From IMG/VR virus record IMGVR_UViG_3300036766_001364, positions 1 through 64,000 of that record: a DNA stretch of 64,000 bases; one strand, written 5' to 3'. Source of the DNA: a virus. Its lineage: Duplodnaviria > Heunggongvirae > Uroviricota > Caudoviricetes. How positions within the stretch are numbered: position 1 is the stretch's first letter; every line of letters starts with the position of its first letter. A model generated the notes under the pieces. The model was not told where the DNA came from. It saw only the letters and a program-made list of their open reading frames with translations, and searched no databases. Both the position numbers and the translations under genes were made by a program. This document shows, piece after piece, positions 2,371 to 39,903 of this stretch.

Positions 2371-2380
2371 GTACTATAAT
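2371..2380 (+). promoter_or_regulatory. Promoter-like gtacTATAAT, a perfect -10 hexamer at 2375-2380, 30 nt upstream of the GTG at 2410
   Basis: AT-rich island in a GC-rich genome, followed by the RBS GAGGAGG at 2393-2399. Confidence 0.5.
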
Positions 2381-2409
2381 AGCGCCACGACGCAGAGGAG
2401 GACCGATCA

Positions 2410-2796
2410 GTGAACGACCGAACCGATCCGTCGCCGACGGGCCGCCTCGGCGGGCGTGGCCCCAGCATCCAGAACGCGACGGTCCGCACCGCGAGGGGCG
2501 GCGAGATCCGAGACGCTTTCACGGGCGCGCGCCTTCCGACCGGGGCAGAGAGAGCGGCCCTCGCCGTCGCCGCGAGAGGGACGGTCCACGACTGGCCCTA
2601 CGAGATCCGCGACGAGGAGATACGCGAATGCCGCCGCCGGGGATGGCTCTTCACGTGGCACTCGGTCGTCACGTCGGCGGGCGGCGGCGCTGTGGGCGGC
2701 CGGAACAAGGACGAGATCACGGCGCTTGGGCTGCGCGCACTCCACGCCTATTCGACGCCGGCCAGCGGGCCGTCATCGCTCGCGGAGGGATCGTGA
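2410..2796 (+). CDS. Hypothetical protein (128 aa), GTG start
   Basis: GAGGAGG RBS 10 nt upstream; ORF in track. Confidence 0.6.
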   Translation: MNDRTDPSPTGRLGGRGPSIQNATVRTARGGEIRDAFTGARLPTGAERAALAVAARGTVHDWPYEIRDEEIRECRRRGWLFTWHSVVTSAGGGAVGGRNKDEITALGLRALHAYSTPASGPSSLAEGS

Positions 2797-2972
2797 CCGT
2801 CGCCAGCTGCCTGGACTGCGGGAGAGAGATCTCCGGTCGCCCGATAGAGGATCGATTGAAGATCCTCACGGCGCTGGGGATACCGGCCGCCGTCCGCAGC
2901 GTGGTCTGCGCTCCCTGCGCTCGGGCCGGTGCGGAGCGCGAGAAGGCGTCCGACGGGAGCGGCGGGCGATGA
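2793..2972 (+). CDS. Small zinc-ribbon protein (CxxC...CxxC), 59 aa, GTG start
   Basis: GGAGGGA RBS; 4-nt overlap with the previous stop. Confidence 0.4.
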   Translation: MTVASCLDCGREISGRPIEDRLKILTALGIPAAVRSVVCAPCARAGAEREKASDGSGGR

Positions 2973-3295
2973 CCAAGACCGAGATCGCGGTCTTCGTCGC
3001 CGTCGGCGCCGGCGCTTTCTTCATGCGTTTCGAGGGGTGGACGCCGAACTTCTACTTCACGTTTATCGGCGGCGTGATCGGCGGCGCGCTCATCGGGTTC
3101 GACGAGGGCAAGCGCAGCGCGATCAAGTCTGCGCGCTCGCTAGGCGAGGACGCGATCGCCGACGAGCCCTGCTTGACGTGCGGACTCCAGTACAGCGCGG
3201 GCGACTCGATCGGGCCGGCGGGCTGGCACGACGGTCACTTCTGGCGCGACCGAGCGGGCCTGACGCCGGCCCAGAAGCGGAGGACCCGTGCCTGA
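2969..3295 (+). CDS. Small membrane protein (hydrophobic N-terminal half)
   Basis: ATGA overlap with the upstream gene; hydrophobic segment FVAVGAGAFFM...FIGGVIGGALIG. Confidence 0.5.
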   Translation: MTKTEIAVFVAVGAGAFFMRFEGWTPNFYFTFIGGVIGGALIGFDEGKRSAIKSARSLGEDAIADEPCLTCGLQYSAGDSIGPAGWHDGHFWRDRAGLTPAQKRRTRA

Positions 3296-3509
3296 CGAAT
3301 TCCCACAGGACGCGATCTGCCACGGCGGGAGCTCGAACGCCTTTGGTGCCCCGTGTACGAAAGACCCGACGCACGACATCACGGTTGACGGCGGGGGTGG
3401 GTTCATCGGCAGACTCTGTGACGAGTGTCTGGATCGCTACGAGGAGCTCTTTACCGGTAACGCTCGACGAGCGCTGCGGTACAAGACTGAGCAGGAAGTG
3501 AGAGGATGA
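3288..3509 (+). CDS. Hypothetical Cys-containing small protein
   Basis: ORF in track, overlapping gene chain. Confidence 0.35.
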   Translation: MPDEFPQDAICHGGSSNAFGAPCTKDPTHDITVDGGGGFIGRLCDECLDRYEELFTGNARRALRYKTEQEVRG

Positions 3510-3793
3510 CTGAACGCGAAGACGCCGATGACTTTCGTTTTCACGGCGATGCTCCAGTCCGTCTCGTGCTGACAGACTCTTATGTGGTCGCGCCAGGTGG
3601 GATCCCGGCATTCGAGGCCGCCGCGGCTCGAGACGCCCGCGTCGAGACTCTGGTGCGCTTGCTCCGAGCGCGCGAATGGTCGCCCACCGGCGGCCCAGAG
3701 GGGCGTGAATGCGACGACTGCGGGCGCTTTCAAAGCGAGGGTCACGCCCGGGACTGCGAGCTCGCGAGGGCGATCGAGGGACGAGATGGATGA
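3506..3793 (+). CDS. Hypothetical protein (95 aa)
   Basis: ATG with GAGAGG RBS. Confidence 0.45.
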   Translation: MTEREDADDFRFHGDAPVRLVLTDSYVVAPGGIPAFEAAAARDARVETLVRLLRAREWSPTGGPEGRECDDCGRFQSEGHARDCELARAIEGRDG

Positions 3794-4196
3794 CGCCCGG
3801 CTGCCAGACGACGAACAGTTCGAGCGCGCGACGGCCGCGAAGGTGGTGCGATCCTCAGACGGCGGGTGGTCTGTCACGCGGACGAACGGCTGGGGCTGTT
3901 CGTCCAAGACGCCGGGATCACGCCCGAGGTCGGCGACGCGTTCAGGCTCTACGGGCGCGGCATCGGCTACGCCGTGCGCGGGCGAGGTGACATGCGCCCA
4001 TTTCCGTGGCACCCGCGACCCATTCGGCACGACGACGCGCATCCAGCACGGCGACGACCCCGAGGCCGCCCGCGACTTCACGGCGGGGGTCATGCCCGAG
4101 GGGGTGTGCGAGAACGGTCACGACGTGGCGCTTGAGCGGTGGCTGTTTGCCACGATGCGCCACGCCGGGTGCGCACCGACAGGAGAGGAGCGATGA
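3786..4196 (+). CDS. Hypothetical protein (136 aa)
   Basis: In-frame ATG at 3786 after GAGGGA; upstream part of track ORF 3582 is probably not translated. Confidence 0.45.
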   Translation: MDDARLPDDEQFERATAAKVVRSSDGGWSVTRTNGWGCSSKTPGSRPRSATRSGSTGAASATPCAGEVTCAHFRGTRDPFGTTTRIQHGDDPEAARDFTAGVMPEGVCENGHDVALERWLFATMRHAGCAPTGEER

Positions 4197-4642
4197 CCCA
4201 GACGAACCGCGAAGCGACGCAGGCGGTGGTGGATGCCGCGCGAAAGGACGCCGCCGCGGCGAATCACCCGTTCGCATCGCTCTGTGGGTGCGATATCCAC
4301 ATCGCCCTTCGCACCCTCGACGCCACGCTGGAGACGGAGAGCGAGCGCATCTTCCGCAAGCTGTCACTCGCCTTCAACCGATGGGCTGACGGGGAGCGAC
4401 ACAGCCACGCGGATGAATGCCTGAGCGCCGGATTCCTTACCCGCGTTACAGGCGGACGATTCACAGGCTCTCATCCATTGAACGACGTTGAAGCCACGCT
4501 AGACGCCTACCTCGCCTCCAAGCCGGAGATGCTGGATATCGCAAAGCGCGGAATACAGGATGCGCTGAACTGCTTGGGCGATACCAGATCGGTGGGGAAC
4601 CGTCTCAGCGCTCTGCTGATCGAGTTGGAGGCGGAACGATGA
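4193..4642 (+). CDS. Hypothetical protein, paralog family A (paralog at 16529..17008)
   Basis: AGGAGAGGAG RBS. Shared block ERIFRKLSLAFNRWADGER...ATLDAYLA matches DRVFRKLARSFPIWRDGQR...AALDAYLA. Confidence 0.55.
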   Translation: MTQTNREATQAVVDAARKDAAAANHPFASLCGCDIHIALRTLDATLETESERIFRKLSLAFNRWADGERHSHADECLSAGFLTRVTGGRFTGSHPLNDVEATLDAYLASKPEMLDIAKRGIQDALNCLGDTRSVGNRLSALLIELEAER

Positions 4643-4854
4643 GCGGTGAAGTCGGGCGTTCTCAACTCGATTCGATGCTGTGCGACGGCGATGGCTGTCT
4701 CGGTGATCATGACGGGCTTTTCTTCCATTCACGGTGTCACAGCAGTGTCCCGACGTGGGTGGTCTACAGCCATGGAGTTGCCACGATTACCTGCGCCGAA
4801 TGCAAAGAGCCGATAGCGCGCCTGCTCATCGGCGACTGCGAGGCGGCATCGTGA
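4639..4854 (+). CDS. Hypothetical Cys/His-rich small protein
   Basis: ORF in overlapping gene chain. Confidence 0.4.
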   Translation: MSGEVGRSQLDSMLCDGDGCLGDHDGLFFHSRCHSSVPTWVVYSHGVATITCAECKEPIARLLIGDCEAAS

Positions 4855-5033
4855 CGCAGCCCAACAGTTCTCCACAGCTACTTGGCAGAATGGAGTTCGA
4901 TGATGGCACTGGTATTGAACTGTTCCAGTGTCCTGACTGCGAGACTGTTCTCACAACCGAGATTCTTTGCCCTGTTTGTATGCTTCGTCGGGAGATAGCG
5001 GACATGCGGGAAGACTTGCGAGCGATTCGATGA
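4851..5033 (+). CDS. Small zinc-ribbon protein, paralog family B (DDGTG...CPxC...CPxC); paralog at 21310..21498
   Basis: GTG start. FDDGTGIELFQCPDCE...CPVCMLRRE matches VDDGTGFDVFLCPVC...CPICLLREE. Confidence 0.5.
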   Translation: MTQPNSSPQLLGRMEFDDGTGIELFQCPDCETVLTTEILCPVCMLRREIADMREDLRAIR

Positions 5034-5269
5034 CGCAGCCCACAAGCATCGAACTGGCAGAGGCGCTACGCACCTGTCTAGCCCGCAGTTGGCGCTATCA
5101 CGAATCAAACGACCTACAGGCCATTCTTGACGCATTTGACCCCGAGCAGGCGCGGCTAGAGGCGATGGTGGTAAAGGCGGCGCTGGTGTGGCCAAGCTCC
5201 CTCACCGAACTATGGATGGCAGTCAAATCTCTCGAAACTCACATCGCAGTGAAGGAGGCCAAGCCGTGA
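5030..5269 (+). CDS. Hypothetical protein, paralog family C (paralogs at 9327..9713 and 19545..19838)
   Basis: Shared FDPEQARLEAMVVKAAL...LETHIAVKEAKP-type C-terminus. Confidence 0.55.
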   Translation: MTQPTSIELAEALRTCLARSWRYHESNDLQAILDAFDPEQARLEAMVVKAALVWPSSLTELWMAVKSLETHIAVKEAKP

Positions 5270-5500
5270 TTAGCAGGGAACTGGCAATCGAACTGCATAA
5301 ACGGCTGAACAATGCAGGCACGCTCACTGGCTTGGGTGACGTGAAAACGGCGGTCTACGAATTAATCGAGGTAATGAGCCGACTGGTGGACGCGGCCACG
5401 GAGCACCCGCGATGAACGTACACCTGCCCGCCGAGTACCGCCTGTCGCCCGAGCGTCGTGAGCTGGTGCCGACGTGGCGGGTAATCGCGTGGAGGCCGTC

Positions 5501-5737
5501 ATGACCAAATTGCAGACCAAAGAAGTCCTGCGAGACATCGAGCGGGAACGCCGCCAGTGGGCCGATCTGATCAACCTCATCGAACGACTGGCGGAGGATA
5601 TCAGAGTCCACCTCGGCTGGTGCGAGGAACACCAGCGCTACGAACCGAACGGAGAACCGTTCGACGGGTTTCCGGGGAGCACGTACCAAGCCGACCTGCT
5701 CGCCAAAGCCGAGCGCGTGACGAAAAGAGAGGCGTAA
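5501..5737 (+). CDS. Hypothetical protein (78 aa)
   Basis: GGAGG RBS then ATG at 5501, internal to track ORF 5474. Confidence 0.45.
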   Translation: MTKLQTKEVLRDIERERRQWADLINLIERLAEDIRVHLGWCEEHQRYEPNGEPFDGFPGSTYQADLLAKAERVTKREA

Positions 5738-5738
5738 C

Positions 5739-6065
5739 ATGGGAGACATGGCGGACTTTGCCTTAGACGCCGTGATGGATGACGAAGAAGCGCGACTCGA
5801 CTTCCACATGGGTCTGACGAACATCGTCGAAGCCTATGAGCGTGGAATAGTCGATGAGCTTGGGCGCGAGCTGTCCTATCGCCTCGCTTTGCTCATCCGA
5901 TGCAAGTACTGTAGCGCTCCCGATCTTCATTGGAAAGACGTTGAACGCGGCTGGCGTCTAGTTGACGGCGCAGGAGACGTCCACAGTTGCGCGAAGTATG
6001 GACGCGCGAAGCACTCGGAGAAGCGGCGGCCCGGTTCGATGCCGGAGCTCCCGGAGGCGAAGTGA
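5739..6065 (+). CDS. Hypothetical protein (108 aa)
   Basis: AGAGAGG RBS; ORF in track. Confidence 0.45.
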   Translation: MGDMADFALDAVMDDEEARLDFHMGLTNIVEAYERGIVDELGRELSYRLALLIRCKYCSAPDLHWKDVERGWRLVDGAGDVHSCAKYGRAKHSEKRRPGSMPELPEAK

Positions 6066-6307
6066 GCGGTCTGAATCGCTATCGGCTGGCGGTCGGCCCG
6101 TGGTTGGACCGCTGGAGGGTGATGTACTCGGCGACGGTCTGCGACGGGTGGGCCCAGTCGTTCGTGGTCATCGCGCGAAGCGAGGCGGCGGCACACCTGG
6201 TCGCGAAGGGCATCAGGCTGTCGATCGCGGAAGGACTCGCCGACGCGAGCGACGTCCAGTCGCTGTACCGCGCCGCCCGGACGACCCTCGGCAGAGTCGA
6301 CTCGTGA
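6062..6307 (+). CDS. Hypothetical protein (81 aa), GTG start
   Basis: GGAGG at 6050-6054; overlap chain. Confidence 0.35.
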   Translation: MSGLNRYRLAVGPWLDRWRVMYSATVCDGWAQSFVVIARSEAAAHLVAKGIRLSIAEGLADASDVQSLYRAARTTLGRVDS

Positions 6308-6732
6308 ACGCACGTCTGTCGGTGTATTATCGCGGCGTGCGCGTCCTCGTCTGCGGAGGTCGAAACTTTGGACACCTGGCCGACTGTCGCGGTGGCGACT
6401 GCCTTTCCTGCGACCCCGTGGACTTCAAGATCATCGAGGCAGAGCTGGCGAAGCTCGGCTCGGGCGACATCGTGATCGAGGGCGACGCGCGCGGAGCCGA
6501 TCGGATCGGCGGCCACATCGCCGCGGCGTTGGGCCACGAGGTCCTCGTCTTTCCGGCGCAGTGGGATAAGTTCCACAGAGCGGCCGGACTGATCCGCAAC
6601 CAACAGATGCTCACCGAGGGGAAGCCAGACCGAGTGCTCGCGTTCCACCGCGACCTCGCGCGCTCGAAGGGGACGAAAGACATGGTAGCCCGTTCAAAGT
6701 GGGCGGGACTGCCCGTGGAGGTGTTGCCTTGA
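6304..6732 (+). CDS. SLOG / DUF2493-like Rossmann-fold protein (YspA/DprA/LOG-like)
   Basis: VLVCGGRNFG...IVIEGDARGADRIGGHIAAALG...VLVFPAQW matches the GGR...GGA.GAD SLOG signature. Confidence 0.55.
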   Translation: MNARLSVYYRGVRVLVCGGRNFGHLADCRGGDCLSCDPVDFKIIEAELAKLGSGDIVIEGDARGADRIGGHIAAALGHEVLVFPAQWDKFHRAAGLIRNQQMLTEGKPDRVLAFHRDLARSKGTKDMVARSKWAGLPVEVLP

Positions 6733-7091
6733 CTTATCCACCGGACATCCCCAAGGGGTTGTTCAGAGACGACGAGGGGTTCCTGAAGGCGGTCAAGGAC
6801 TATGACGAGAATGGCCTCCCGCGGCGGCCATCCGTCGATCCCTACGACTTGACCGGCAAAGCGTGCACGGCAGTCTCTGCGCGGGACGGGTTCAAAGGGG
6901 AGTGCGGACACCCCGCGTTCACCGTCTGGTCGTGGGCGCCTGGGCACCTCGACGGGTACCGCTGCGTCTGTTGCGTCCGCAGGGCGTGGGAGGAATCGTC
7001 TGCCAATTTGAAGAAAGAACTCGATTCCCTGCCATCGGGCTGCTCAGCGCAGTCCGAAGGACAGTCGGGAATGGAGGAAACCGATGATTAA
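6699..7091 (+). CDS. Hypothetical protein; true start is either GTG 6699 or TTG 6729
   Basis: GGAGG 7 nt before the TTG at 6729. Confidence 0.4.
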   Translation: MGGTARGGVALTYPPDIPKGLFRDDEGFLKAVKDYDENGLPRRPSVDPYDLTGKACTAVSARDGFKGECGHPAFTVWSWAPGHLDGYRCVCCVRRAWEESSANLKKELDSLPSGCSAQSEGQSGMEETDD

Positions 7092-7497: not shown

Positions 7498-7654
7498 CGA
7501 CCGTCGGGACCATATACGATCGCGTCTTACCGAGGATCAGAGAGTTGCGGGTCGGCTTCGATCGTGAGCGCGTCCTGCGCTTCGATCTATACGGATCTCC
7601 TCCGCGAGCCGTCTGGCTTCGCCTGAAGAAAGCGCGCGAAGAGAGGAAGGCGAT

Positions 7655-9222: not shown

Positions 9223-9282
9223 CTCGGCCACGCGGGCGTGTCGCCGACTGGTCTCCGTTCGCCCCATGACGCACGCTCTCGC

Positions 9283-9297
9283 GTGATATATTAGTAC
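9283..9297 (+). promoter_or_regulatory. Promoter-like gtgaTATATTagtac, 30 nt upstream of gene 9327
   Basis: AT-rich island; same motif at 14699-14714. Confidence 0.4.
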
Positions 9298-9326
9298 CAG
9301 CAACGCAACGGCGAGAGGACGACCAG

Positions 9327-9713
9327 ATGAAGTCCACGAACAGCGACATGACTGAGGCGCTGCGTTTAATTGCAGACCTTTCACCCGTAGCATCGGACGT
9401 CCGATGGGATGCAGAAGACGGCTATGCAGCCTATCGCACGCTCGACGGTAAACGTGAGTCCGTGCGGTGCTACGTTGGTGCGCATAACTCGGGGGACTCA
9501 GAGGATTTTGGCTACGAAATGGGCCTGTGGGCCGCAGCTAAAATAGCTCGGAAGTACCTTGTGGGCTTCGACCCCGCGCAGGCGCGGCTAGAGGCAGCGG
9601 TGGTAGAAGCTGCGTTGGCTACTCATACCAAAAGAGCCTATGCCAACCAAGAGTTCGATACCGCCCTTTACAATCTCGAAGCTCACATCGCAGCGCAGGA
9701 GGCAGGAGCGTGA
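9327..9713 (+). CDS. Hypothetical protein, paralog family C
   Basis: FDPAQARLEAAVVEAAL...LEAHIAAQEAGA C-terminus. Confidence 0.5.
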   Translation: MKSTNSDMTEALRLIADLSPVASDVRWDAEDGYAAYRTLDGKRESVRCYVGAHNSGDSEDFGYEMGLWAAAKIARKYLVGFDPAQARLEAAVVEAALATHTKRAYANQEFDTALYNLEAHIAAQEAGA

Positions 9714-14607: not shown

Positions 14608-14698
14608 GACAGGCAGGGGGACGCACAAACAGTCTGGTAAGATGTCTTATAATGCGCAAGAGACTGGAGATTGCCGAGCGCTTCACCCTCAATTCTCC

Positions 14699-14714
14699 CG
14701 TGGTATATTAGTAC
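14699..14714 (+). promoter_or_regulatory. Promoter-like gtggTATATTagtac directly upstream of 14724. A tcttATAATg hexamer also lies at 14648.
   Basis: AT-rich intergenic island 14610-14723. Confidence 0.4.
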
Positions 14715-14723
14715 TACACGACG

Positions 14724-14960
14724 GTGAATGATGGGGAATCGATGATCGGCTACCAGCGCTTCGGGGGTTTGGCCGAGGTGGACATCGCCAAACTGACGGC
14801 CGAGTGTTCTAAGGTCGCGTACTCGTCGGCCGCCACGGCGCACCATTCGCTGGCCGAGATCCGCGTGAAGAACCTCGATGACGGCCTGCGCGTATACCAC
14901 TGTCCGCACTGCGAGCTCTGGCATGTGGGACACAGCAAGCGGCCGCGAGTAACGCCTTGA
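14724..14960 (+). CDS. Hypothetical protein (78 aa) with a C-terminal CPHCxxWH motif
   Basis: ORF in track after the promoter-like island. Confidence 0.45.
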   Translation: MNDGESMIGYQRFGGLAEVDIAKLTAECSKVAYSSAATAHHSLAEIRVKNLDDGLRVYHCPHCELWHVGHSKRPRVTP

Positions 14961-15290: not shown

Positions 15291-16532
15291 ATGATTGATG
15301 TCTTCAAGACCGAGAACGCGTTCGGGACCGGGGAAGTCCGCTCGTGGGCGTCTCTGCTCGACGAGAACTGCCGCCGGCAAGCCGAGGCGATCAGTCGCGT
15401 GCCGATCCTGGACGGCTACCTCGCGCTCATGCCCGACGCCCACTTCGGCTACGGGCCGCCTGTCGGCTCGGCGTTAATCACGACCGACGCGATCATGCCC
15501 TACGCGGTCGGGAGTGACATCGGCTGCGGGATGATCGCCATCAAGACAACCATAGAACGGGGCCGATTCGGCGAAACCGAACTGCACCGGCTGGCGGGGA
15601 ACGTCCGCACCCTGATCCCTTCGGGGCCAGCAGCACACGAGACGCCCTCGGAACTCAGCGATGAGTTCTTCGCGGGCTATGGCGATGCGCCGGGCCTCAC
15701 TCTGTTTGGGCAACGGGCGGAACACATGGCCTCAACCGCTCGGCGACAATTCGGTACTCTCGGCGCGGGCAATCATTTTGTGGAAGCGTGCGTCGGATTC
15801 GATTCGCCCGAAGCGCCCGTTTGGCTTGTGCTTCACAGCGGATCACGCGGCATCGGGAAGATGCTCTGCGACGTTCATGTAGCGGCTGCCAAGGCGGTCT
15901 GCATGAGAGACGTGGAGCGGCTGGAGTCCCCCGACTTCGCCTTCGTGCGGCGGGGCGATCCCGCGTATGGGGCATACATCGCGGACATGGTGTGGGCGCA
16001 GAATTTCGCTCACCACCAGCGCGAGGCAATGATGGAGGCGTTCATCGACGCCGTCAAGACTTCGCTCGGTATCACACACGACTCGCTCGACTACGAGACC
16101 GTGGCGAACTGCCACCACAACTACGCCGAGGAGATCGCCCCGAGTCGGTGGCTGACCCGCAAGGGCGCGATCGACGCTTCGCTCGGCGCCGTGGGCGTCA
16201 TCCCCGGCTCGATGGGCGCCGCGACATACATCGTCCGCGGCCTCGGCAACGAAGAAGCGTACTGCACGTCTCCGCACGGGGCGGGTCGACTGCTCGGACG
16301 CGGCGTCGCTCGGCGCACCCTGAGCCTCGACGACTTCAGGGCGCAGATGGGCGGCCGGACGTGGCAGGACCGAGACGCCGACGAGCTGCTCGACGAAGCG
16401 CCGGGGGCGTACAAGCCGATAGAGACCGTGATCGCAGACAGCGCGTCGCTGGTCGAGACGACCGCCGTGTTGAGTCAGTTCTTCAACTACAAGGGGGTCG
16501 GCTCGGGCCACGGGAAAGGCGTGAAGCGATGA
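15291..16532 (+). CDS. rtcB: RNA-splicing ligase RtcB (3'-phosphate/5'-hydroxyl RNA ligase)
   Basis: LMPDAHFGYGPPVGS, GSDIGCGMIA, NCHHNYAEE, SPHGAGR. ATG at 15291 is the likely start; the upstream part of track ORF 15180 is not RtcB-like. Confidence 0.9.
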   Translation: MIDVFKTENAFGTGEVRSWASLLDENCRRQAEAISRVPILDGYLALMPDAHFGYGPPVGSALITTDAIMPYAVGSDIGCGMIAIKTTIERGRFGETELHRLAGNVRTLIPSGPAAHETPSELSDEFFAGYGDAPGLTLFGQRAEHMASTARRQFGTLGAGNHFVEACVGFDSPEAPVWLVLHSGSRGIGKMLCDVHVAAAKAVCMRDVERLESPDFAFVRRGDPAYGAYIADMVWAQNFAHHQREAMMEAFIDAVKTSLGITHDSLDYETVANCHHNYAEEIAPSRWLTRKGAIDASLGAVGVIPGSMGAATYIVRGLGNEEAYCTSPHGAGRLLGRGVARRTLSLDDFRAQMGGRTWQDRDADELLDEAPGAYKPIETVIADSASLVETTAVLSQFFNYKGVGSGHGKGVKR

Positions 16533-21313: not shown

Positions 21314-21498
21314 AACCACCAGGATACATCGGGCGGATCACCGTGGACGACGGCACTGGGTTCGACGTGTTCCTGTGTCCAGTCTGTCGCATCCTGCTGT
21401 GGGACGACGCCGCGTGCCCCATCTGTCTGCTGCGCGAAGAGGTACGGACACTGGAGCGGAGACGGATCGGTCACGAGCCGCCCGCTCTTCGGTTGTAG
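21310..21498 (+). CDS. Small zinc-ribbon protein, paralog family B
   Basis: See 4851..5033. Confidence 0.5.
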   Translation: MKPPGYIGRITVDDGTGFDVFLCPVCRILLWDDAACPICLLREEVRTLERRRIGHEPPALRL

Positions 21499-21529
21499 AA
21501 TGACGCTAACATCAAAATAGGGGAGAAAG

Positions 21530-25274: not shown

Positions 25275-25289
25275 CCATCAGTTCTGTCG

Positions 25290-25299
25290 TACTAAGATA
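25290..25299 (+). promoter_or_regulatory. Promoter-like gtacTAAGAT only 5 nt before the GTG at 25305, suggesting a leaderless transcript
   Basis: AT-rich island; motif shared with 2371, 32483 and 34495. Confidence 0.35.
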
Positions 25300-25304
25300 C
25301 GGGC

Positions 25305-26186
25305 GTGACGCTCTCTACAACATCGACTAGGGTCGTCGGCATCGACGAAGCCGGTCGCGGAGCGTGGTCTGGCCCACTCGTCGTCGGCGCTGCGGTCGAG
25401 CCCGACGGCGTCCCGCCGTGGTGGGGACAGCTCGACGACAGCAAGCTCCTCTCGCCGCGCCAGCGCGAAGGGCTCTATTCGCTCATGCTCCGCGACGGAG
25501 TCAGGCACGCGCTCGGATGGGTCTCGGCGTGGGAGATCGACGGGCGCGGCATGCAGTGGGCTTTCAGAGAGGCCGTCAGGCGGGCGCTGTTCGCGCTCGG
25601 TCCCATCGAGGGCGGCCGCACGATCCTCGACGGAGACACGACCGCGGGCGTGGCAGACGAGTGCCTCATCGGGGCCGACAAGGTCGTCCCCGCGGTGTCC
25701 GCGGCGTCGATCGCGGCGAAGGTGTCACGCGACCGCTACGTGACCGAGGTCGACGGAGCGCTCTGGCCAGAGTACGGGTTCGCCGCGCACAAGGGCTACG
25801 GCACGGGCGACCATCGGAACCGCATCGCGGAGCACGGATCGGCGATGGTCCACAGGCGATCGTTTAAGCCGCTGCGGGGGACGCGCGTCACCGAGCGCAT
25901 GGCGCGCCCGCGCTACAGGCTCGGCAGCCTGTCGATCGACCACGCCGGGACGCCGCTCCTGACGCTCAGGGGCGAGAAAGACGCCGACCGCGACGCCGTC
26001 CGTCACGGAGACCTCCGGCAGCGGCAGGTCTATCCGCTCGATCAGCAGGCCATATCTCACTTCACGCTCCATCCGGCGTTCGCCTCGGGCGCAACTGCCG
26101 CAGAGACGCGCTACGAGATGGCGCGCGTCTTCAACGCGTGGGAGATGATGAAGAGCGTCGACGACAGGTTCTGGAGGTACCAGTGA
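25305..26186 (+). CDS. rnhB: Ribonuclease HII with a C-terminal extension of about 80 aa
   Basis: VGIDEAGRGAWSGPLVVGAAV...DSKLLS...KVSRDRY...HKGYG matches the RNase HII core. Confidence 0.8.
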   Translation: MTLSTTSTRVVGIDEAGRGAWSGPLVVGAAVEPDGVPPWWGQLDDSKLLSPRQREGLYSLMLRDGVRHALGWVSAWEIDGRGMQWAFREAVRRALFALGPIEGGRTILDGDTTAGVADECLIGADKVVPAVSAASIAAKVSRDRYVTEVDGALWPEYGFAAHKGYGTGDHRNRIAEHGSAMVHRRSFKPLRGTRVTERMARPRYRLGSLSIDHAGTPLLTLRGEKDADRDAVRHGDLRQRQVYPLDQQAISHFTLHPAFASGATAAETRYEMARVFNAWEMMKSVDDRFWRYQ

Positions 26187-26272
26187 GCGTGCTCCAGACG
26201 GTCAAGAGCCGCCTTACGATCGTCCTGTCCTATTTTCCCTTATCGGCCGGCGCTCATCCGAGGTAGATTGTA

Positions 26273-26941
26273 TTGAACGACACAGCAACGATACGGAGCA
26301 AGGCGATGGACCTGTTCGGAACAGAGGCAGAAGCGCTGTCGCGCGTCAGAGAAATGCGACTGGAGTCGATCGAGACGGCGATCGGCGTCCCGGCGAAAGC
26401 GTGGGCGGGTCGATGCTACGAGATCGCGTGTCGCGCGGTGCGCGCGAAGGCCGTCGACGGATCCCCCAGGTACGGACACTGGCTCGGCCCCGTGGCGAAG
26501 GGGATTCGGTTCGACAACTCCTACCCGTTCCAGCGACACGGGTGGATCGAGAAGGGCGACGGGGCGATCGTCGACCCGACGCGGTGGGTGTTCGAGGGCG
26601 CGCAGCCGTACGTCTACGTGGGGCGCAACGACCACTACGACGCGGGCGGGAACAGGCTCAGGGAGTCCATGGAGCGACCGTGCCCGCCGTTCATGCCCGA
26701 CGACCAGTCGTTCACGGTGCGGCTGCCCGCCGAGGTGGAGGGCATGCTGCCGCCCAACGCGTTGACGTCGTTCGCCAAGGAGTCGGCGACGGTGTCGTTC
26801 CCGCAGCTCGTGTGGCTCGCGAACCTGTCGCTGAACCGGCTCGGAGACTTCGCCCGGCCCGTGTACCGCGAGATCGAGCGGGTCGGGATGCGGGCGCTCA
26901 TCCCGCTCGACAACAGGACCGCCGTGCTCGGCGAGAAATAG
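26273..26941 (+). CDS. Hypothetical protein (222 aa); possible papain-like Cys/His/Asp arrangement
   Basis: CYEIACRAV...HGWIEKGDGAIVDPT; assignment speculative. Confidence 0.4.
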   Translation: MNDTATIRSKAMDLFGTEAEALSRVREMRLESIETAIGVPAKAWAGRCYEIACRAVRAKAVDGSPRYGHWLGPVAKGIRFDNSYPFQRHGWIEKGDGAIVDPTRWVFEGAQPYVYVGRNDHYDAGGNRLRESMERPCPPFMPDDQSFTVRLPAEVEGMLPPNALTSFAKESATVSFPQLVWLANLSLNRLGDFARPVYREIERVGMRALIPLDNRTAVLGEK

Positions 26942-28595: not shown

Positions 28596-28612
28596 CGAAA
28601 GAGGAGATTCAA

Positions 28613-32457: not shown

Positions 32458-32482
32458 TGGGACGCGCATTCGACGCTCTCCT

Positions 32483-32492
32483 GTACTAAAAT
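32483..32492 (+). promoter_or_regulatory. Promoter-like tgtacTAAAAT 20 nt upstream of the ATG at 32513 (RBS GAGGAGG)
   Basis: AT-rich island; identical core at 34495. Confidence 0.45.
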
Positions 32493-32512
32493 AGAATACA
32501 CGAGGAGGCGCG

Positions 32513-32737
32513 ATGCCAGACTTCACGATCAATCCCGTGCGGAGCACGTTCCACGTGCGCGAGTACCGCATCGTCAGCGTCGACTTGGACAAGTACTACG
32601 GTCGCGTCTTCACCGACCACGATTCGCGCGGGTGGATCGCAGTCGACGTAGACGACGGTGAGGCGTCCGGGTTCACCAACAAGCATCGGGCGGCAGCCCA
32701 CCTGTTCGGGCTCGGCGGCAAGGCGTGGAAGTGGTGA
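32513..32737 (+). CDS. Hypothetical protein (74 aa)
   Basis: Good RBS and promoter-like motif. Confidence 0.45.
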   Translation: MPDFTINPVRSTFHVREYRIVSVDLDKYYGRVFTDHDSRGWIAVDVDDGEASGFTNKHRAAAHLFGLGGKAWKW

Positions 32738-32798
32738 TCCTCCAGAGAGTCTCACGTGGTAGGATCCCCCGAGACTAAAAACCGAGGAGATCAAACCC

Positions 32799-34463: not shown

Positions 34464-34494
34464 AGAGAGAGCCCGTGTTCTTCTTCCACTTTGT

Positions 34495-34504
34495 GTACTA
34501 AAAT
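34495..34504 (+). promoter_or_regulatory. Promoter-like tgtgtacTAAAAT 30 nt upstream of the ATG at 34534
   Basis: AT-rich island; identical to 32483. Confidence 0.45.
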
Positions 34505-34533
34505 AAGGGCATCACAACAAAGGGAATAAGCAG

Positions 34534-35049
34534 ATGCCGACCAATACGCTCACGCGACCGAGCGCGAAGACGCCGAGATCCAAGAAGAAATCGCTTCCCA
34601 AGATCCGCAAGCCCCTCAGCAGCGCGACGCGCGCCGCCCTGCAGCCGCTCATCGTCAAGCTGAACGAGGCCAAGACCCAGAAAGCCGCGGCCGAGAAAGA
34701 ACACGACGCGGTTCGCGACCAGATCGTCGCGATCGTCCGCGATCGGCAGCTGCCGATCGTGGGACCGAAGTCCGAGTACCTCAACTCGAACACCATCGAC
34801 AAGGCGCTCTGCGTCACCCGCCCCGAGCCCAAGCTCACCGTCGACCCGACCAAGCTCTTCGAAGCCGTCGGGCCCGCCGTGTTCTTCAAGGTCTGTCGGG
34901 TGCTCAAGGTCGACTTCAACCTCGCGATGTGGGAAGTCCTCAAGGAGCAGGAGATGGTCACCGACGAGCAGCTGACCAGGTCGCTGCCCGACGAGGACCC
35001 AGACGCTAAGGACTCGATCACGATCTCGCTCGCCGCGATCCAGAAATAG
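34534..35049 (+). CDS. Hypothetical protein with a basic N-terminus (171 aa)
   Basis: AAGGGAATAAG RBS; strong promoter-like motif upstream. Confidence 0.5.
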   Translation: MPTNTLTRPSAKTPRSKKKSLPKIRKPLSSATRAALQPLIVKLNEAKTQKAAAEKEHDAVRDQIVAIVRDRQLPIVGPKSEYLNSNTIDKALCVTRPEPKLTVDPTKLFEAVGPAVFFKVCRVLKVDFNLAMWEVLKEQEMVTDEQLTRSLPDEDPDAKDSITISLAAIQK

Positions 35050-35104
35050 CGGATCGCGCGGGCGATCTCGACCGCGACGACCGAACACTGAAGGAGACGA
35101 AAGC

Positions 35105-35326
35105 ATGGCAGACACGTGTAGCCACGGGTTCATCGATCCGCTCGCGTTGGATGCGCTTCTCTCTGAGATGCGCGACATCACCGGTGCAGAATGCGTCGAG
35201 GTGCGCATCTCGCGATCTCCGACGGGGACCGGCGCAGTCCTGTGGGTGAACACGGAGAAGGGGTGCGTCCTGCGGATCTGCCGGGTCAAGGAGCTGAACA
35301 TCGAGGACGAGAGGAAGACGCGATGA
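35105..35326 (+). CDS. Hypothetical protein (73 aa)
   Basis: AAGGAGACGAAAGC then ATG. Confidence 0.4.
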   Translation: MADTCSHGFIDPLALDALLSEMRDITGAECVEVRISRSPTGTGAVLWVNTEKGCVLRICRVKELNIEDERKTR

Positions 35327-35787
35327 GCCGAGAAGCGCGGCGCGCGCCCAAGAACTTCAACTGGCCGCTGCACGAGGTCTGGTGGGGGTACGTCCTCGAT
35401 CCGATGCCGTGCCAGGAACGGTTCGAGGACGGCGACCACGCCGAGTGTCAGGTCTGCGAGGGTGAAGGCCGCGTCTACTCCAGGATCGAATGTCCCGCGT
35501 TCGCCGTGAACGACCAGACTGACGGGCAGAAGCGCCGCGCTGAGCGCCTCGACTACGGCTGGCAGATGTGGGAGACGACGAGTGAGGGTTCACCGACGTC
35601 TCCCGTGTGCGACTCGCCCGAGGAGCTCGCGCACTGGCTGACCGACAGCGGCGCTTCGACGTTCGCGGGCATGACGACCACCTACAAGAGATGGCTCGCG
35701 ATGATCCGGGCCGGGAGCAGCGTCGCGTCCACGGTCGCGATCGGCGATCAGCTGGTGTCTGGAGTCGACGCGGTCTCAGATGTCTAG
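35323..35787 (+). CDS. Hypothetical protein (154 aa)
   Basis: ATG inside track ORF 35191. Confidence 0.45.
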   Translation: MSREARRAPKNFNWPLHEVWWGYVLDPMPCQERFEDGDHAECQVCEGEGRVYSRIECPAFAVNDQTDGQKRRAERLDYGWQMWETTSEGSPTSPVCDSPEELAHWLTDSGASTFAGMTTTYKRWLAMIRAGSSVASTVAIGDQLVSGVDAVSDV

Positions 35788-35823
35788 GGTGAGGCGAAGG
35801 ATCTCATCGATCAGATCTGCGAC

Positions 35824-37857
35824 GTGACGAACCTCTCGACAGAGACGGTCAGTCGGCCAGATCGGCTCTCGCGTGATAAGATTGTCCCAACAGCAACGGG
35901 ACAGGGATGTCGCATGCGGGTCAACGATCTAGTCAACGACGCGCTCTTGAGATGGGCCGGTCTGCACGCGGGCGAGAAGAACTCCTGGGAATTCAATGAA
36001 CAGCGCCGGGACCTGAACGCAAGCCGGGACCTCGATCCCACGGGCCTGACCGCGTTCATGATGGTCCGCGGCCTGCTCGAAGAGTGGCTGAAAGATCGGA
36101 CGTTCACCGGCCTCGATATCGTCACCGATTTCGCCGACGTCTCCGAGAAATTAGCGCCCGCGCGCGCGCTCAGAGAACTGCTGGAAGACCCCCAGATCGC
36201 GGCGATCAGCGACGCGTTCGTCGACAAACTCAGGGACGCGGCGAAACACTACGCTCTGTCTGAGGGACGGGCGCTGGCATTCGAGGACCTCCTGGCAGAC
36301 AAGTACGACCTCGCTTACGTCCGCCGAGACGCCCTCCGGTCTATGGAGCGTCTCGCTGCGCACCAGTTCGTCCAGGGAGAGCCAGACGCCGCTCCGCTCA
36401 AGTTCAACCCCGAGATCTTCGAGTTCTGGAACGTGAACTCGCTGCTCAGGGCGATGATCGGACAGAAGGAGTCTGGCATCACTCTCTGCCTCATCAGGGA
36501 CCCCGAGTTAGAATTGGCCTCGTACTTCGTTTTCGCGGTGCGCAACGGCGAGACCCTGACGATCCTCACCGACCGGGAAGAAGGGCCTCATCCCGCCTTC
36601 AACAGGATGTCAAGGCGCCCAGACAGGAACTTTGAAAGACGAGCGGCGAAGCACTGGTTTCCGTACCACTTGCTCGATCTTGAGCGGACGCCGGACGACG
36701 AGTACCTCAAGGTGAAAGCGCGCAGCGCACTGGTGCCGATCGACGCGAAAGCGGTCGTGCTGGCTTGCGTCGGAGACCTCTATCCAGAAGAGTTCGTCTG
36801 GCTGACGCTCGTCTTTGAGCTGATCCTCGACCGCTACGGTCGGCAGAACGCCCTCCTTCCTGAGGTCTCCTACACCGGTGAGATGGTGGTCGCGCCCAAC
36901 GCTCTCATCGGCGAACACGGCGCCCTGGCGGTCGCGGAACGGTACACGCCGCTTGCCATGGCCTCACTCACCAGGAAAGACGTGACCGCGAAGACGACCA
37001 GAAAGCAGTGGGCCAGAGAGCCCGTGCTCTGGAACCGGTGGATGATCGAGCGCTACGGTGATCAAGTCCCAGACGAAGTCCTCAATCCGGTCGGAGAGGG
37101 TGCTCGCCTCATCGTTGAAGCCGCTGTCGACGCGCTCGCGCTCGATCCCGCAGACCGTCGCCTCGCGCTCTTCGAGAAGAAGCCAAGGCGCGTAGAAACG
37201 CTCTCTCCGGTCACCTTTGGGACGCGCGACAAGCTCGAGAAAGACAGGCTCTGGGTGGCGCGCGTGAACCAGATGCGGACCATCGACAGGCTCGCCAGAG
37301 ACGAGTACGAGCGCGAGAATAAAGCGATCCGCGCCTGGTGCAAGGAACGCCTCAGCGCTAACCGCGAGGCGCTCCTCGACGCCGCAGCGTGCGGCGAATT
37401 GCTCGGGCCGCGTCAGTCGTTCTGGGAAAAGGGAACGATCGGATTTTTGCACGGGTACGCCAAAGAGGAGCGCACAAACCTGCTCTCGCAGCGCGTCGAT
37501 CGGCCAAACGGGGGCGGGTACGCGGACTTCGGCGTCGACGAGGGCGAGACGCCCGCGCTCTACTCTCACGTCGCGCCGACATGTCCGGGAGCGTTGGCCA
37601 TCCTGTACGGCGTGGCCGAAGAAGACCTGCCGTGGCCCCTGAGGCACTGGTACCCCGACGAGCCGTATAGGGGGAACTCGATCCTGGAGCGTCTTGACCC
37701 CGAGGACTGGATCCTTAAGAATCCGTGGAGAGGGATTGGCCTCTCCCTCCGTATCGCGCAGTCTCGCAGTGCCTACAACGCGCGCCGCAAGGCTCTAGGG
37801 TTGCCGCTCAAGCGGCTGCCAGAGCCTCCGCCGAAAGATGATGAGAGATGGCGATGA
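35824..37857 (+). CDS. Large hypothetical protein (about 677 aa) of unknown function; alternative ATG start at 35911
   Basis: Long ORF with balanced composition; no motif recognised. Confidence 0.6.
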   Translation: MTNLSTETVSRPDRLSRDKIVPTATGQGCRMRVNDLVNDALLRWAGLHAGEKNSWEFNEQRRDLNASRDLDPTGLTAFMMVRGLLEEWLKDRTFTGLDIVTDFADVSEKLAPARALRELLEDPQIAAISDAFVDKLRDAAKHYALSEGRALAFEDLLADKYDLAYVRRDALRSMERLAAHQFVQGEPDAAPLKFNPEIFEFWNVNSLLRAMIGQKESGITLCLIRDPELELASYFVFAVRNGETLTILTDREEGPHPAFNRMSRRPDRNFERRAAKHWFPYHLLDLERTPDDEYLKVKARSALVPIDAKAVVLACVGDLYPEEFVWLTLVFELILDRYGRQNALLPEVSYTGEMVVAPNALIGEHGALAVAERYTPLAMASLTRKDVTAKTTRKQWAREPVLWNRWMIERYGDQVPDEVLNPVGEGARLIVEAAVDALALDPADRRLALFEKKPRRVETLSPVTFGTRDKLEKDRLWVARVNQMRTIDRLARDEYERENKAIRAWCKERLSANREALLDAAACGELLGPRQSFWEKGTIGFLHGYAKEERTNLLSQRVDRPNGGGYADFGVDEGETPALYSHVAPTCPGALAILYGVAEEDLPWPLRHWYPDEPYRGNSILERLDPEDWILKNPWRGIGLSLRIAQSRSAYNARRKALGLPLKRLPEPPPKDDERWR

Positions 37858-38020
37858 TCGACGCGCGTGGAGACCGAGTGATGGTGCTCTATCGGGGGTC
37901 GTGGCCGCTCTACATGGATCGAGGCGTGGTGGTCGCCTTCTATCAGACGCGCGTCGAGGTCCAATTCGATCAGGTCGTCGGCGCGCAGCGTGGCGATCCG
38001 AAGCACCTGAGGCGGCTGCC

Positions 38021-38365
38021 GTGAGCGCTCGCGACGAGGCAGACGTGGCGATCGGCCTCGAAGAAGCGCGTCGCTTGAACGCGGGAGAGACGATCCTGAT
38101 TGACTATGCCTCGGATCGGTACGGCGTGGACAGCTCTGTCGCCGTCGCGCTGAGCATCGAGGCCATAGAATGCGATGCGCTCAGAGGCGCGGTCCTGCGG
38201 GCAGCGCTCCGCGTGACGACGGCCTTCCAGAAGGCGAACGAATCTGGCGAGAGAAGCGTCCAGGTCTATGTCACTGACGACGCCGCGTCGCCGATCGGGC
38301 GGCTGGTGCTGGCGGCGCGCCGTCTCGAAGAGTTCGAGGCGCTATTTGAGAGGAGACAGAGATGA
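38021..38365 (+). CDS. Hypothetical protein (114 aa)
   Basis: GTG in frame of track ORF 37838. Confidence 0.4.
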   Translation: MSARDEADVAIGLEEARRLNAGETILIDYASDRYGVDSSVAVALSIEAIECDALRGAVLRAALRVTTAFQKANESGERSVQVYVTDDAASPIGRLVLAARRLEEFEALFERRQR

Positions 38366-38568
38366 TCACCGATTTCGATCGCGAGCACGTCCAGGAGATC
38401 CTCGTCAACAAAGATGGTCGGTTCGACTGGTACTCGTGCCACGTGATCCGCACAGTCGCGAAGGCAGATCGCGCCAACAGGGAAGTCATGCGCGCGGCCT
38501 ATCCAGAGCACGTCGCGGCCTACGAGCGCTGGCTGTTTTCATCGACCGACGGGAGGACACTGAGATGA
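38362..38568 (+). CDS. Hypothetical protein (68 aa)
   Basis: ORF in track. Confidence 0.35.
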   Translation: MITDFDREHVQEILVNKDGRFDWYSCHVIRTVAKADRANREVMRAAYPEHVAAYERWLFSSTDGRTLR

Positions 38569-38984
38569 CCAAGACGTATCGCGGCCACCGGGCAGCAGAC
38601 GGCCATGTCGTCGTGCAGCGCTCAGACGGAGACGGTCCGCCGTGGAAAGCCCTGCCCCACGTCGCTTTCCATTCGCCCACGGGATTCGAGTGGGGGTACG
38701 GAGGATCGGGACCCGCTGACCTCTCGCTCTCGCTGCTGTGCGACGCTTTAGGCGTCGCGCCCAGCTCGATGCGGTCTTACGCGAAGGGGTCGATCAGGGA
38801 CTTTCCGGTCGAGCGCTACGTCTCGTGCCACGCCGTATACGGGATGCACCAGCGGTTCAAGTTCGAGGTCGTGGCGAAGCTCGATCACAACCAGTGGGAG
38901 CTGACTCAGGACAAGATCTCGTCCTGGTCGCTGAGGGCGTCGGCGCAGGATCGAGACCAAGAACACTCGGAGGACGAACGGTGA
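38565..38984 (+). CDS. Hypothetical protein, possibly DUF6166-like
   Basis: ATG inside track ORF 38268; motif HSPTGFEWGYGGSGPADLSLSLL. Confidence 0.45.
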   Translation: MTKTYRGHRAADGHVVVQRSDGDGPPWKALPHVAFHSPTGFEWGYGGSGPADLSLSLLCDALGVAPSSMRSYAKGSIRDFPVERYVSCHAVYGMHQRFKFEVVAKLDHNQWELTQDKISSWSLRASAQDRDQEHSEDER

Positions 38985-39538
38985 CGCATTTCACGTGCCT
39001 GGTGATCGGGGGCGACGTCGCGCGCCAGCTAGCGCCCTACGACAGGGGACTCGCCATGGAACCGTATCGCGACTACAAAGACGACCCAAAGATAGAACGG
39101 TTAGCCGAGATCTACGGAGTCGACGCCTCCGATCTCGAAGCGCTCGCCGCGACGCTCATCAAAGATGGGGACAGGCTGTGTGGCATTGACGAGACCGGTC
39201 TCTACGAAGTCACGACGTACAATCCAGACTCGAAGTGGGATTGGTACACAGTCGAAGGGCGCTGGTCTGGCTACTTCGCCCTCAAGGACGGGAGCCGGGT
39301 CGACGAAGCGCTGAAGGGCGACGTCGACTGGGAGAAGATGCGCTCAGAAGATGAACACAGTGGACGCCACCACACGGTGGCGATCGTCGGAGAAGGCGTC
39401 TACCAGGCGGTGGGCGTCGTCGGCTGGTTCGGCGCGGTCGACACGTCTCACGAGAGCGAATGGAGAGAGCGCTGGTGGAAGGTCGTCGACGGTCTGTCAG
39501 ACGACGCCCCGCTGACGCTCGTCGACATGCACATATGA
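38981..39538 (+). CDS. Hypothetical protein (185 aa)
   Basis: GTG inside track ORF 38738. Confidence 0.45.
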   Translation: MTHFTCLVIGGDVARQLAPYDRGLAMEPYRDYKDDPKIERLAEIYGVDASDLEALAATLIKDGDRLCGIDETGLYEVTTYNPDSKWDWYTVEGRWSGYFALKDGSRVDEALKGDVDWEKMRSEDEHSGRHHTVAIVGEGVYQAVGVVGWFGAVDTSHESEWRERWWKVVDGLSDDAPLTLVDMHI

Positions 39539-39579
39539 TACGACGCCTCCGGAGTCGAGCCCCCCTCGTTAGTAGTACA

Positions 39580-39903
39580 ATGACGCGGCGTATGACGATC
39601 AACGGTCTGCTTCGACACATCGGCTTTCGGGCGAGATTTCCACGTCAGAGTTCTCTGTCAGCGACAGAAAAGGCACTGATCGACGTTCTCGGTGACTGGT
39701 GGAACGCCTACTGTAAGTTGCCGGACCGCCACCTGACGGAGGAAAATGAGGTCGCGTCGATGGTCCACGAACTCCAACGGATCATCATGGCTCGCGTGGC
39801 CGAGCGGACAGATCCTGACGTGTTCAAGAGATCCGTGCGATCGACGAGACATCTCGCAGACGCTGGTAGAGATCCACGGATGGTGAAATATGAGCGTTCT
39901 TGA
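39580..39903 (+). CDS. Hypothetical protein (107 aa), apparently leaderless (tagtagtacaATG)
   Basis: ATG immediately after an AT-rich GTAC motif; no RBS. Confidence 0.4.
   Translation: MTRRMTINGLLRHIGFRARFPRQSSLSATEKALIDVLGDWWNAYCKLPDRHLTEENEVASMVHELQRIIMARVAERTDPDVFKRSVRSTRHLADAGRDPRMVKYERS

Follow-up and report, generated by a model that had tools for sequence, protein, structure and literature searches.

What are the short AT-rich islands that lie ahead of rightward genes in an otherwise GC-rich phage genome, and which RNA polymerase would read them? The window analysed here is a stretch of 64,000 nucleotides (GC 64%), positions 1 to 64,000 of the IMG/VR record IMGVR_UViG_3300036766_001364 (Caudoviricetes). 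An earlier note on this DNA had picked out seven such islands, linked them through a common GTAC motif beside a −10 hexamer, and suggested that a sigma-like protein encoded at 48048-48800 might recognise it. We find that the islands do correspond to predicted promoter −10 regions 5' of + strand genes, and that a real promoter family is strongly supported by the sequence. The recurring unit, overlooked in the first reading, is an element of ~45 nt with a core from −25 to +8.

All seven of the quoted strings are present, although two coordinates were off by one: the GTAC near 25290 starts at 25289, and the start of the second TATATTAGTAC block is 14700 instead of 14699. These blocks agree at 14 of 15 positions rather than 13, and the 11-mers at 32483 and 34495 are indeed identical, as part of a longer identical 12-mer, TGTACTAAAATA, at 32482 and 34494. 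With the gene calls completed, all the sites lie in genuine intergenic gaps, with T(−12) 12–40 nt from a + strand start codon, and a GGAG-type ribosome-binding site follows many of the islands, as had been described.

Could such strings be chance matches in AT-rich intergenic DNA? GTAC by itself is common, with 173 copies in the window against 102 ± 9 expected, mainly within genes, and 12 copies in ~2.7 kb of intergenic DNA where ~7 are expected from its overall frequency. The longer patterns, in contrast, greatly exceed expectation. GTACTANNAT gives six matches, compared with 0.07 in dinucleotide shuffles. A listing of GT..TA...T matches revealed TCTC upstream at a fixed distance, a feature unselected in that search, and TCTNNNGTNNTANNNT then gives eight matches against 0.33 expected, 8/8 on the + strand and 8/8 before genes. 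A de novo expectation-maximisation motif search, run on intergenic DNA after missing small open reading frames (ORFs) had been added, converged on GCTCTC..GT..TA...T. The enrichment before genes that a shared promoter motif implies is thus confirmed.

The family also recurs in DNA that played no part in defining it. The contig L028 is the same contig reaching left of the window (window coordinate = L028 coordinate − 7241), and a matrix built from ten window sites retrieved 14 further sites, scoring 15–27 bits, in these 7.2 kb. Every one is on the + strand, with none on the − strand, and each occupies a gap of 30–120 nt before a small ORF; dinucleotide shuffles of the left arm predict 0.035 matches. 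The density there is about one cassette per ORF of 36–333 aa. In the reverse direction, a matrix from the 14 left-arm sites only retrieves the window hexamers at 2375, 9287, 14704, 21496, 32487, 32760 and 35877 at 14.5–23.9 bits, which includes four of the seven islands first described; it is weak on 39576 and 26264 (about 10.5) and on 25293 (7.0), and misses 34499. Chance origin, to which we give next to no credence, is refuted by the shuffle tests and this out-of-sample scan, and the strictly + strand, pre-gene placement also speaks against it. The motif density peaks at the left end of the contig, before the leftmost tiny ORFs. The matrix scan found the motif absent from the replication module (41-62 kb), and one copy only was present in the ~8 kb of late region seen.

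Aligning the ten window seed sites with the 14 scan-found sites gives 24 sites with the consensus c G C T C T C n C G T G R T A R A A T R g n C C C A(+1) a C A a c a. In the resulting logo T−12, A−11 and T−7 are each invariant (24/24), a result which is partly circular for the ten seed sites, but not for the 14 found by the scan. G−16 is likewise present in all 24. The canonical extended −10 TG is formed by T−15 (22/24) and G−14 (18/24). Further upstream a GCTCTC box, from −24 to −19, is as conserved as the −10 hexamer, as is C−17; T−22, C−21 and T−20 each occur in 22–23 of the sites. Downstream, an A at +1, the 12th base after T−12 and 7 nt past the hexamer, is found in 19 of 24, with GGAG-type ribosome-binding sites at ~+14 to +17 and start codons at ~+24 to +30. 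There is no −35 element: positions −36 to −30 of the logo carry only 0.01–0.1 bit, and a scan for two-hexamer sigma-70 (−35/−10) promoters found three against 2.5 expected, with no enrichment. The overall layout is that of −35-independent extended −10 promoter grammar, to which a spacer box and a CA-rich leader are added.

This alignment changes the place of GTAC, which does not form one shared motif but stands at three different offsets from the −10 hexamer: −16 to −13 at 2371, 25289, 32483 and 34495, −5 to −2 at 9294 and 14711, and −13 to −10 at 39575. Nor does it serve as a general −10 extension, the consensus at −16 to −13 in the 24 aligned sites being GTGR, with GTAC in only four. TATATTAGTAC had been taken for the same motif reversed. 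Its + strand reading is box, GTGR, TATATT and AGTAC, where AGTAC is one base from the conserved discriminator AGTCC and the core is the consensus TARAATAGTCC with a single base changed. The reverse-strand reading, GTACTAATAT, is a by-product, and there are no − strand genes at 9283 or 14700.

The individual promoters predicted in the window are all on the + strand, and are given here with scores from the matrix of the 14 outside sites only. Two members of the consensus class hold the TATATTAGTAC-type core. The first, at 9275..9299 (21.9 bits), has GCTCTC at 9275-9280, GTGA at 9283-9286, TATATT at 9287-9292, an AGTACC discriminator and a predicted +1 A at 9299, and contains TATATTAGTAC; its gene starts at 9327. 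The second, at 14692..14716 (15.1 bits), combines an ATTCTC box with GTGG (14700-14703), TATATT (14704-14709), an AGTAC discriminator and a predicted +1 A at 14716, 5' of a gene starting at 14742. Three consensus-class members, with GT at 21492, 32756 and 35873, are newly listed. The site at 21484..21508 (19.1 bits) has a GCTCTT box, GTTG, TAGAAT at 21496-21501 and a predicted +1 A at 21508 (gene start 21530). That at 32748..32772 (14.5 bits) has an AGTCTC box, GTGG, TAGGAT at 32760-32765 and a predicted +1 A at 32772 (gene start 32799). The third, at 35865..35889 (22.3 bits), carries GCTCTC, GTGA, TAAGAT at 35877-35882 and the leader TGTCCCA(+1)ACAGCAAC (gene start 35914).

Four further predicted promoters have GTAC at −16 to −13. 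At 2363..2387 (19.0 bits), GCTCTC (2363-2368), GTAC (2371-2374) and TATAAT (2375-2380) are followed by a predicted +1 A at 2387 and the ribosome-binding site AGAGGAGG, with the gene start at 2410. The highest score, 23.9 bits, belongs to 32475..32499, which has GCTCTC at 32475-32480, GTAC at 32483-32486 and TAAAAT at 32487-32492, a GAGGAGG ribosome-binding site and a gene start at 32513. At 34487..34511 (<6 bits) the box is poor (CACTTT), with GTAC at 34495-34498, TAAAAT at 34499-34504, a predicted +1 A at 34511 and a gene start at 34534. The fourth, at 25281..25305 (7.0 bits), has a GTTCTG box, GTAC at 25289-25292 and TAAGAT at 25293-25298, in leaderless geometry. A weaker family candidate lies at 26252..26276 (GCTCAT box, GAGG, TAGATT at 26264-26269, start 26306, 10.5 bits). 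The site at 39564..39594 is weak and atypical, with GTAG, TACAAT at 39576-39581 and a GTAC that overlaps −13 to −10 (10.8 bits).

Some minor features were seen around these cassettes. A decayed copy (CCTCTCTCGCGATACGAGCG, 11.3 bits) lies at 2322-2342, 40 nt 5' of the 2371 promoter in a divergent intergenic region, and the 2371 island reads GCGC-TATTAT-AGTAC on the − strand, where it could serve the leftward genes 2313..1353. In the left arm (L028:1-7241) the cassettes begin 55 nt in from the end of the contig; here the ends of two independent assemblies are ~170 nt or less apart, which may indicate a genome terminus or a repeat. A good cassette in L028:1955-2061 (CCGCTCTCGTGGTATGAT, 17.9 bits) lacks the leader and ribosome-binding site seen elsewhere; downstream of it come 14 consecutive G and ~90 nt devoid of ORFs, which may reflect either a transcript that codes for no protein or a homopolymer liable to misassembly.

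Although GTAC is not the general signal, the sites that carry it at −16 to −13 in place of GTGR form a set of their own. To the four in the window is added one at ~70.7 kb (L027:18487, GTACTATAATAG). The five share two coordinated substitutions, G−14 to A and R−13 to C, lack the CCCAACA leader, and have no counterpart in the leftmost 7.2 kb; we therefore regard them as a genuine subclass of five members. Their hexamers are the best ones (TATAAT, TAAAAT and TAAGAT), and in three or four of the five the box keeps the same register.

Would this subclass be the target of the phage's own sigma-like protein? That the ORF at 48048..48800 belongs to the sigma-70 family, as first suggested, is supported by its family profile and homologs. 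Alone, the protein matches Sigma70_r2 at a sub-threshold E of 0.19. It has positional orthologs between primase and RecA in four related contigs, and their alignment shows a conserved DDxxQE...YDP...SF.N and two CxxC pairs. An exhaustive profile search with this family gave 117 homologs; Pfam Sigma70_r2 matches 62 of the 84 that were scanned (best 8.6e-18), and a PDB search with the family profile returned sigma factors only (FliA 4.5e-7, SigE 1e-6). A low-confidence model from a three-sequence alignment (pLDDT 61) places sigma-2-like helices, a zinc ribbon and three C-terminal helices in succession, and nearly all of its top 50 Foldseek matches are sigma-factor structures, at weak E values of 0.02–1. 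The predicted ribbon (C116, C119, C131 and C134) lies between the sigma-2-like and sigma-4-like parts. As for region 4, the three C-terminal helices have a pLDDT of 75–82 and LLPxxxR is present, with the region 4 Pfam family matching 2–3 of the 84 homologs. These results support the assignment as a divergent member of the sigma-70 family bearing a zinc ribbon. A Pfam search of neighbouring small proteins gave no matches.

Membership of the sigma family would allow the five GTAC sites (GTACTAnAATA) to be single-element promoters of this protein, a delayed class distinct from GTGR, for which phiEco32 gp36 with its single-element tAATGTAtA offers a precedent (PMC8948821); the shared substitutions, the missing leader and the absence from the leftmost 7.2 kb fit such a scheme. 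We nevertheless consider it improbable. Three or four of the five sites keep the box register, the 2371 and 32483 sites score 19–24 bits with a consensus-class matrix, and T−12, A−11 and T−7 are perfect in all of them. Of the five, four are found with small early-type ORFs upstream of the sigma gene, only one is in the ~8 kb of late region seen and no replication gene has one before it, whereas middle and late genes are the targets of known phage sigmas (PMC8948821). The proposal that the phage sigma reads GTAC thus appears unlikely, with the motif densest at the leftmost tiny ORFs and absent around the sigma gene, and with a predicted zinc ribbon in the protein at the place of the TG-reading domain 3. 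Our searches found no link between the protein and the promoter motif, and no promoter motif for that protein.

What, then, would read the cassettes? TGnTAnnnT without a −35 element characterises the extended −10 promoters of group 1 sigma factors, the TG being read by sigma domain 3. We infer from these features the identity of the polymerase and its sigma factor, the start sites and the timing, and propose, with a probability of roughly 0.7, that the cassettes are early promoters of a lytic-type phage, read by the host RNA polymerase with its primary sigma and without a −35 element. The holoenzyme, with a group 1 sigma, would bind without −35 contact, domain 2 reading T−12, A−11 and T−7 and domain 3 reading T−15 and G−14, and transcription would begin at the conserved A, 7 nt past the hexamer. 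The products would be short, CA-rich, unstructured leaders, or a leaderless mRNA where the start codon is at +1 (25305). At the GTAC sites the loss of G−14 would be accompanied by near-perfect hexamers (TATAAT, TAAAAT) and a mostly retained upstream box, and G−16 and the GCTCTC box would add specificity through some contact, with either the polymerase or a regulator.

The host primary sigma is favoured because TGnTAnAAT is the group 1 signature, whilst the phage protein appears to have a zinc ribbon in place of domain 3. Since copies of the motif are most closely packed before the leftmost tiny ORFs and none falls in the module of the sigma gene, those ORFs would be transcribed before the phage sigma exists. 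A further reason is that relatives use ordinary host-type signals. L020, a relative with a DNA polymerase A 62% identical, carries TGATATAAT, and L025 carries TTGACA −35 boxes and GTGATACGAT, six bases and ATG, so that TGn-TAnnnT, TTGACA and leaderless six-base spacings together amount to a host-type promoter grammar. Some positions are also retained between relatives. GTGGTAGGATCCCC lies 39 nt before 32799 and GCGGTAGGATCCCC 40 nt before the L025 ortholog, whose protein is 32% identical; the core GGTAGGATCCCC of the 32748..32772 promoter is kept, and such retention at an orthologous site supports a function for the predicted promoter. L020 has a promoter-like element at the position orthologous to the 34487..34511 promoter. 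Two DNA pattern scans of IMG/VR for other relatives yielded only single chance matches in unrelated low-GC contigs, and a metagenome scan with the early AAA ATPase found one 2.8-kb contig (39% identity) without the motif. Finally, the host primary sigma is preferred because the promoters driven by known phage sigmas are middle or late ones and dissimilar to the host consensus (PMC8948821).

Several observations weigh against this assignment. The phage itself encodes a sigma-family protein. The TG dinucleotide is missing from the GTAC subclass (2371, 25289, 32483 and 34495), where position −14 is A, and these sites, which also lack the CCCAACA leader, could be functionally distinct. In addition, we know of no described primary-sigma promoter element that includes the GCTCTC box and an invariant G−16, and for this reason a phage- or host-specific factor may be involved. 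There is a small but real chance that G−16 and GCTCTC, with or without the GTAC/GTGR split, are read by something other than the plain host holoenzyme. Candidates would be the zinc-ribbon sigma-like protein, some early protein of the phage, or a polymerase contact particular to the host lineage (possibly Chloroflexota). If this were true, the array would amount to a new promoter element, basal or regulatory, and to a temporal switch between two subclasses.

A more radical possibility is that GCTCTCnCGTG is an operator for a phage or host regulator and TAnnnT is incidental. Stoperators of cluster A mycobacteriophages are one-orientation, intergenic sites, as is the box, which is as conserved as the −10 and has no explanation in polymerase contacts. 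We think this very improbable. The invariant positions are exactly a sigma-70-type −10 plus TG, the spacing to the conserved purine, the ribosome-binding site and the start codon is fixed, and there is no dyad symmetry. A regulator that binds the box would in any case be compatible with promoters read by the host primary sigma rather than a replacement for them, and the box may mark where a regulator binds or where a polymerase particular to the lineage makes contact. An RNA-level role for the CU-rich box, as one arm of an anti-ribosome-binding-site hairpin formed with the downstream site in read-through RNA, was rejected: cognate duplexes average −9.12 kcal against −9.17 kcal for non-cognate pairs (permutation p = 0.54) and −8.54 ± 0.48 for shuffled boxes, with no site-specific complementarity.

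The cassettes might instead be kept alike mainly as recombination substrates that shuffle small ORFs, in the manner of the PeSL cassettes of T4-type phages (RB49/phi1), in which a stem-loop is joined to a promoter (PMC2839356), with promoter activity secondary. About one cassette accompanies each tiny ORFan-like gene, 14 in 7.2 kb, and between two 99.5% identical strains one gene cassette has been replaced (L028:7210-7599 versus L029:7367-7949), with the left breakpoint within the promoter/5' untranslated region and 23 nt of leader identical. This, though, is the single such event observed. In another strain, 99.9% identical, 39067-40543 (1,477 bp, including the 39575 site and several small ORFs) is deleted at a GTA microhomology, and this indel is not located at a cassette; at 99.5–99.9% identity the strains compared are uninformative on constraint. 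The stem-loop that defines PeSL is absent, the 50 nt upstream having a mean minimum free energy of −14.0 kcal against −14.5 kcal for random 50-mers (mean z 0.04), and the variable positions (−10 positions 3–5, −13 and −18) follow promoter logic rather than uniform homology. A primarily recombinational role is improbable.

There is nevertheless a parallel with the early promoter arrays of large lytic phages, namely T4 early promoters and PeSL cassettes (PMC2839356). Here too many near-identical strong promoters serve small, fast-evolving early ORFs at one genome end, with about one promoter per gene and a conserved block that runs through the ribosome-binding site, and the one strain-level gene swap seen breaks inside a cassette. 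The present cassettes differ in having no −35 element, AT-rich upstream region, stem-loop or terminator, in belonging to a high-GC genome and in their unrelated sequence. Without an associated stem-loop they do not strictly qualify as PeSL cassettes.

The family closely resembles primary-sigma extended −10 promoters, with which it shares the invariant T−12, A−11 and T−7, the TG one base upstream, the lack of a −35 and a purine start 7 nt downstream. In the gram-positive '−16 region', a TRTG motif of extended −10 promoters of the primary sigma, TRTGn compares with cGTGr here, a purine preceding the TG in both. The invariant G−16, GCTCTC at −24 to −19, C−17 and a GTAC subclass without G−14 set the present family apart, and neither GCTCTC nor C−17 is known as a contact of the polymerase. 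Thermus phage P23-45 also has −35-less extended −10 promoters that are used by the primary-sigma polymerase of a high-GC host. These, however, are middle and late promoters, aided by phage proteins that block −35 recognition, whereas the cassettes here precede what are presumed to be the earliest genes, and no blocking protein of the P23-45 type was identified in this phage. Like this phage, phiEco32 and 7-11 carry a divergent sigma gene of their own in a middle-gene position and have host-type early promoters; their sigma motifs, tAATGTAtA and GTAAtg-16-aCTA, precede middle and late genes and are unlike the host consensus (PMC8948821). The recurrent motif here resembles the host consensus (TGnTAnAAT) and precedes early-type genes. 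A phiEco32-type sigma motif would be expected before middle or late genes rather than the earliest ones, and would be unlike the host primary-sigma consensus; the present motif shows neither trait.

Two of the islands had been read as giving leaderless transcripts. At one, the geometry fits: six bases separate TAAGAT at 25293 from the GTG start codon of RNase HII at 25305, with no ribosome-binding site, and the Pfam domain of the protein begins at residue 11. At the other, it does not, because the ATG at 39580 sits within the TACAAT hexamer itself. The predicted start of the 39575 site is at ~39588, 4 nt 5' of an in-frame ATG at 39592 that is 10 nt past the hexamer, and this ATG would be a better fit as the start codon.

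A second promoter-like class shares the leaderless geometry. G-TACCAT followed by six bases and ATG occurs twice against 0.03 expected, both times on the + strand. At 43117..43132 the hexamer at 43118 precedes ATG 43130 of DNA polymerase A, whose start codon would thus be at the predicted +1. At 41140..41155 the hexamer is at 41141 and the ATG at 41153, predicting a 7-codon leaderless upstream ORF (41153-41176) that overlaps the UDG start at 41173. In L020 the same arrangement is also found 5' of RNase H (6722-6737). G-TACCAT may represent a separate class of promoter used by replication genes. Leaderless mRNAs are a feature of Actinobacteria and Deinococcus-type bacteria, and the likeness lies in TAnnnT, six bases and ATG or GTG without a ribosome-binding site, seen at 25305, 43130 and 41153 in the window and in the relatives L020 and L025. 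The difference is that leaderless starts are a minority here, most cassettes carrying a 24–30 nt leader and a strong GGAG.

The gene layout frames these two signals. Apart from the − strand genes at 1353-2313, which are the only ones, + is the strand of nearly all genes from 2410 onward. Small unannotatable ORFs fill 2.4-40 kb, and the replication module occupies 41-60 kb, with UDG (start 41173, +), DNA polymerase A (43130, +), DnaB (45215), MT-A70 (46549), primase (47058), RecA (49943), an intein-bearing C5 methyltransferase (55090) and thymidylate synthase (58264); the large terminase starts at 62814. No tRNA was found in a search of the window. An identical DNA polymerase A is carried on a metagenomic contig of 171,975 bp. 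Searching INPHARED with the window gave no DNA matches and only distant protein matches (DNA polymerase A 36% identical to Gordonia phages, terminase 26% to its best match), and an IMG/VR protein search with DNA polymerase A gave no relatives. With no close isolate phage and near-uniform + strand coding, the source is therefore an uncultured large (~172-kb) phage with a single long rightward direction of transcription. The only host clue is the RtcB RNA ligase (15291-16532), 54–57% identical to proteins on contigs of Chloroflexota/Dehalococcoidia metagenome-assembled genomes, with Acidimicrobiales (44%) and then cyanobacteria (~40%) as the next-best groups; this similarity is a hint, not proof, of Chloroflexota as host or as donor of the gene.

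The array is ordinary in kind, that of the early promoters of a large lytic phage; the conserved spacer box is unusual. With ~25 copies, it provides a high-information promoter model for a clade of uncultured phages whose host is of high GC and possibly one of the Chloroflexota, and to our knowledge almost nothing is known of promoter grammar in such hosts. The model predicts transcription units, start sites, and which genes are leaderless or leadered, and it sets the early module apart from the replication module, where the signal is another one (GGTACCAT, six bases, ATG). Both the spacer box and the zinc-ribbon sigma offer concrete, testable leads.

A few features elsewhere in the window deserve mention. 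Between the left end and the − strand genes 1353-2313, which it adjoins, 308-1352 is ~1 kb of 69–71% GC with a weak coding signal and several short tandem repeats of periods 10–16 (for example CAGGGCGTCGCCGACA x2.4 at 1025-1062); the annotation of another assembly has a 261-aa + strand ORF at 426-1211. A NUMOD3-like homing-endonuclease ORF of low GC (~56%) at 54283-55089 lies directly 5' of the C5 cytosine methyltransferase (55090-57315), which is itself split by an intein with a LAGLIDADG endonuclease. Finally, UDG and DNA polymerase A (41173-44743) are separate genes in the window with a 175-aa ORF between them, whilst many database homologs are fused UDG-PolA proteins of 800–900 aa, with or without a 3'-5' exonuclease domain.

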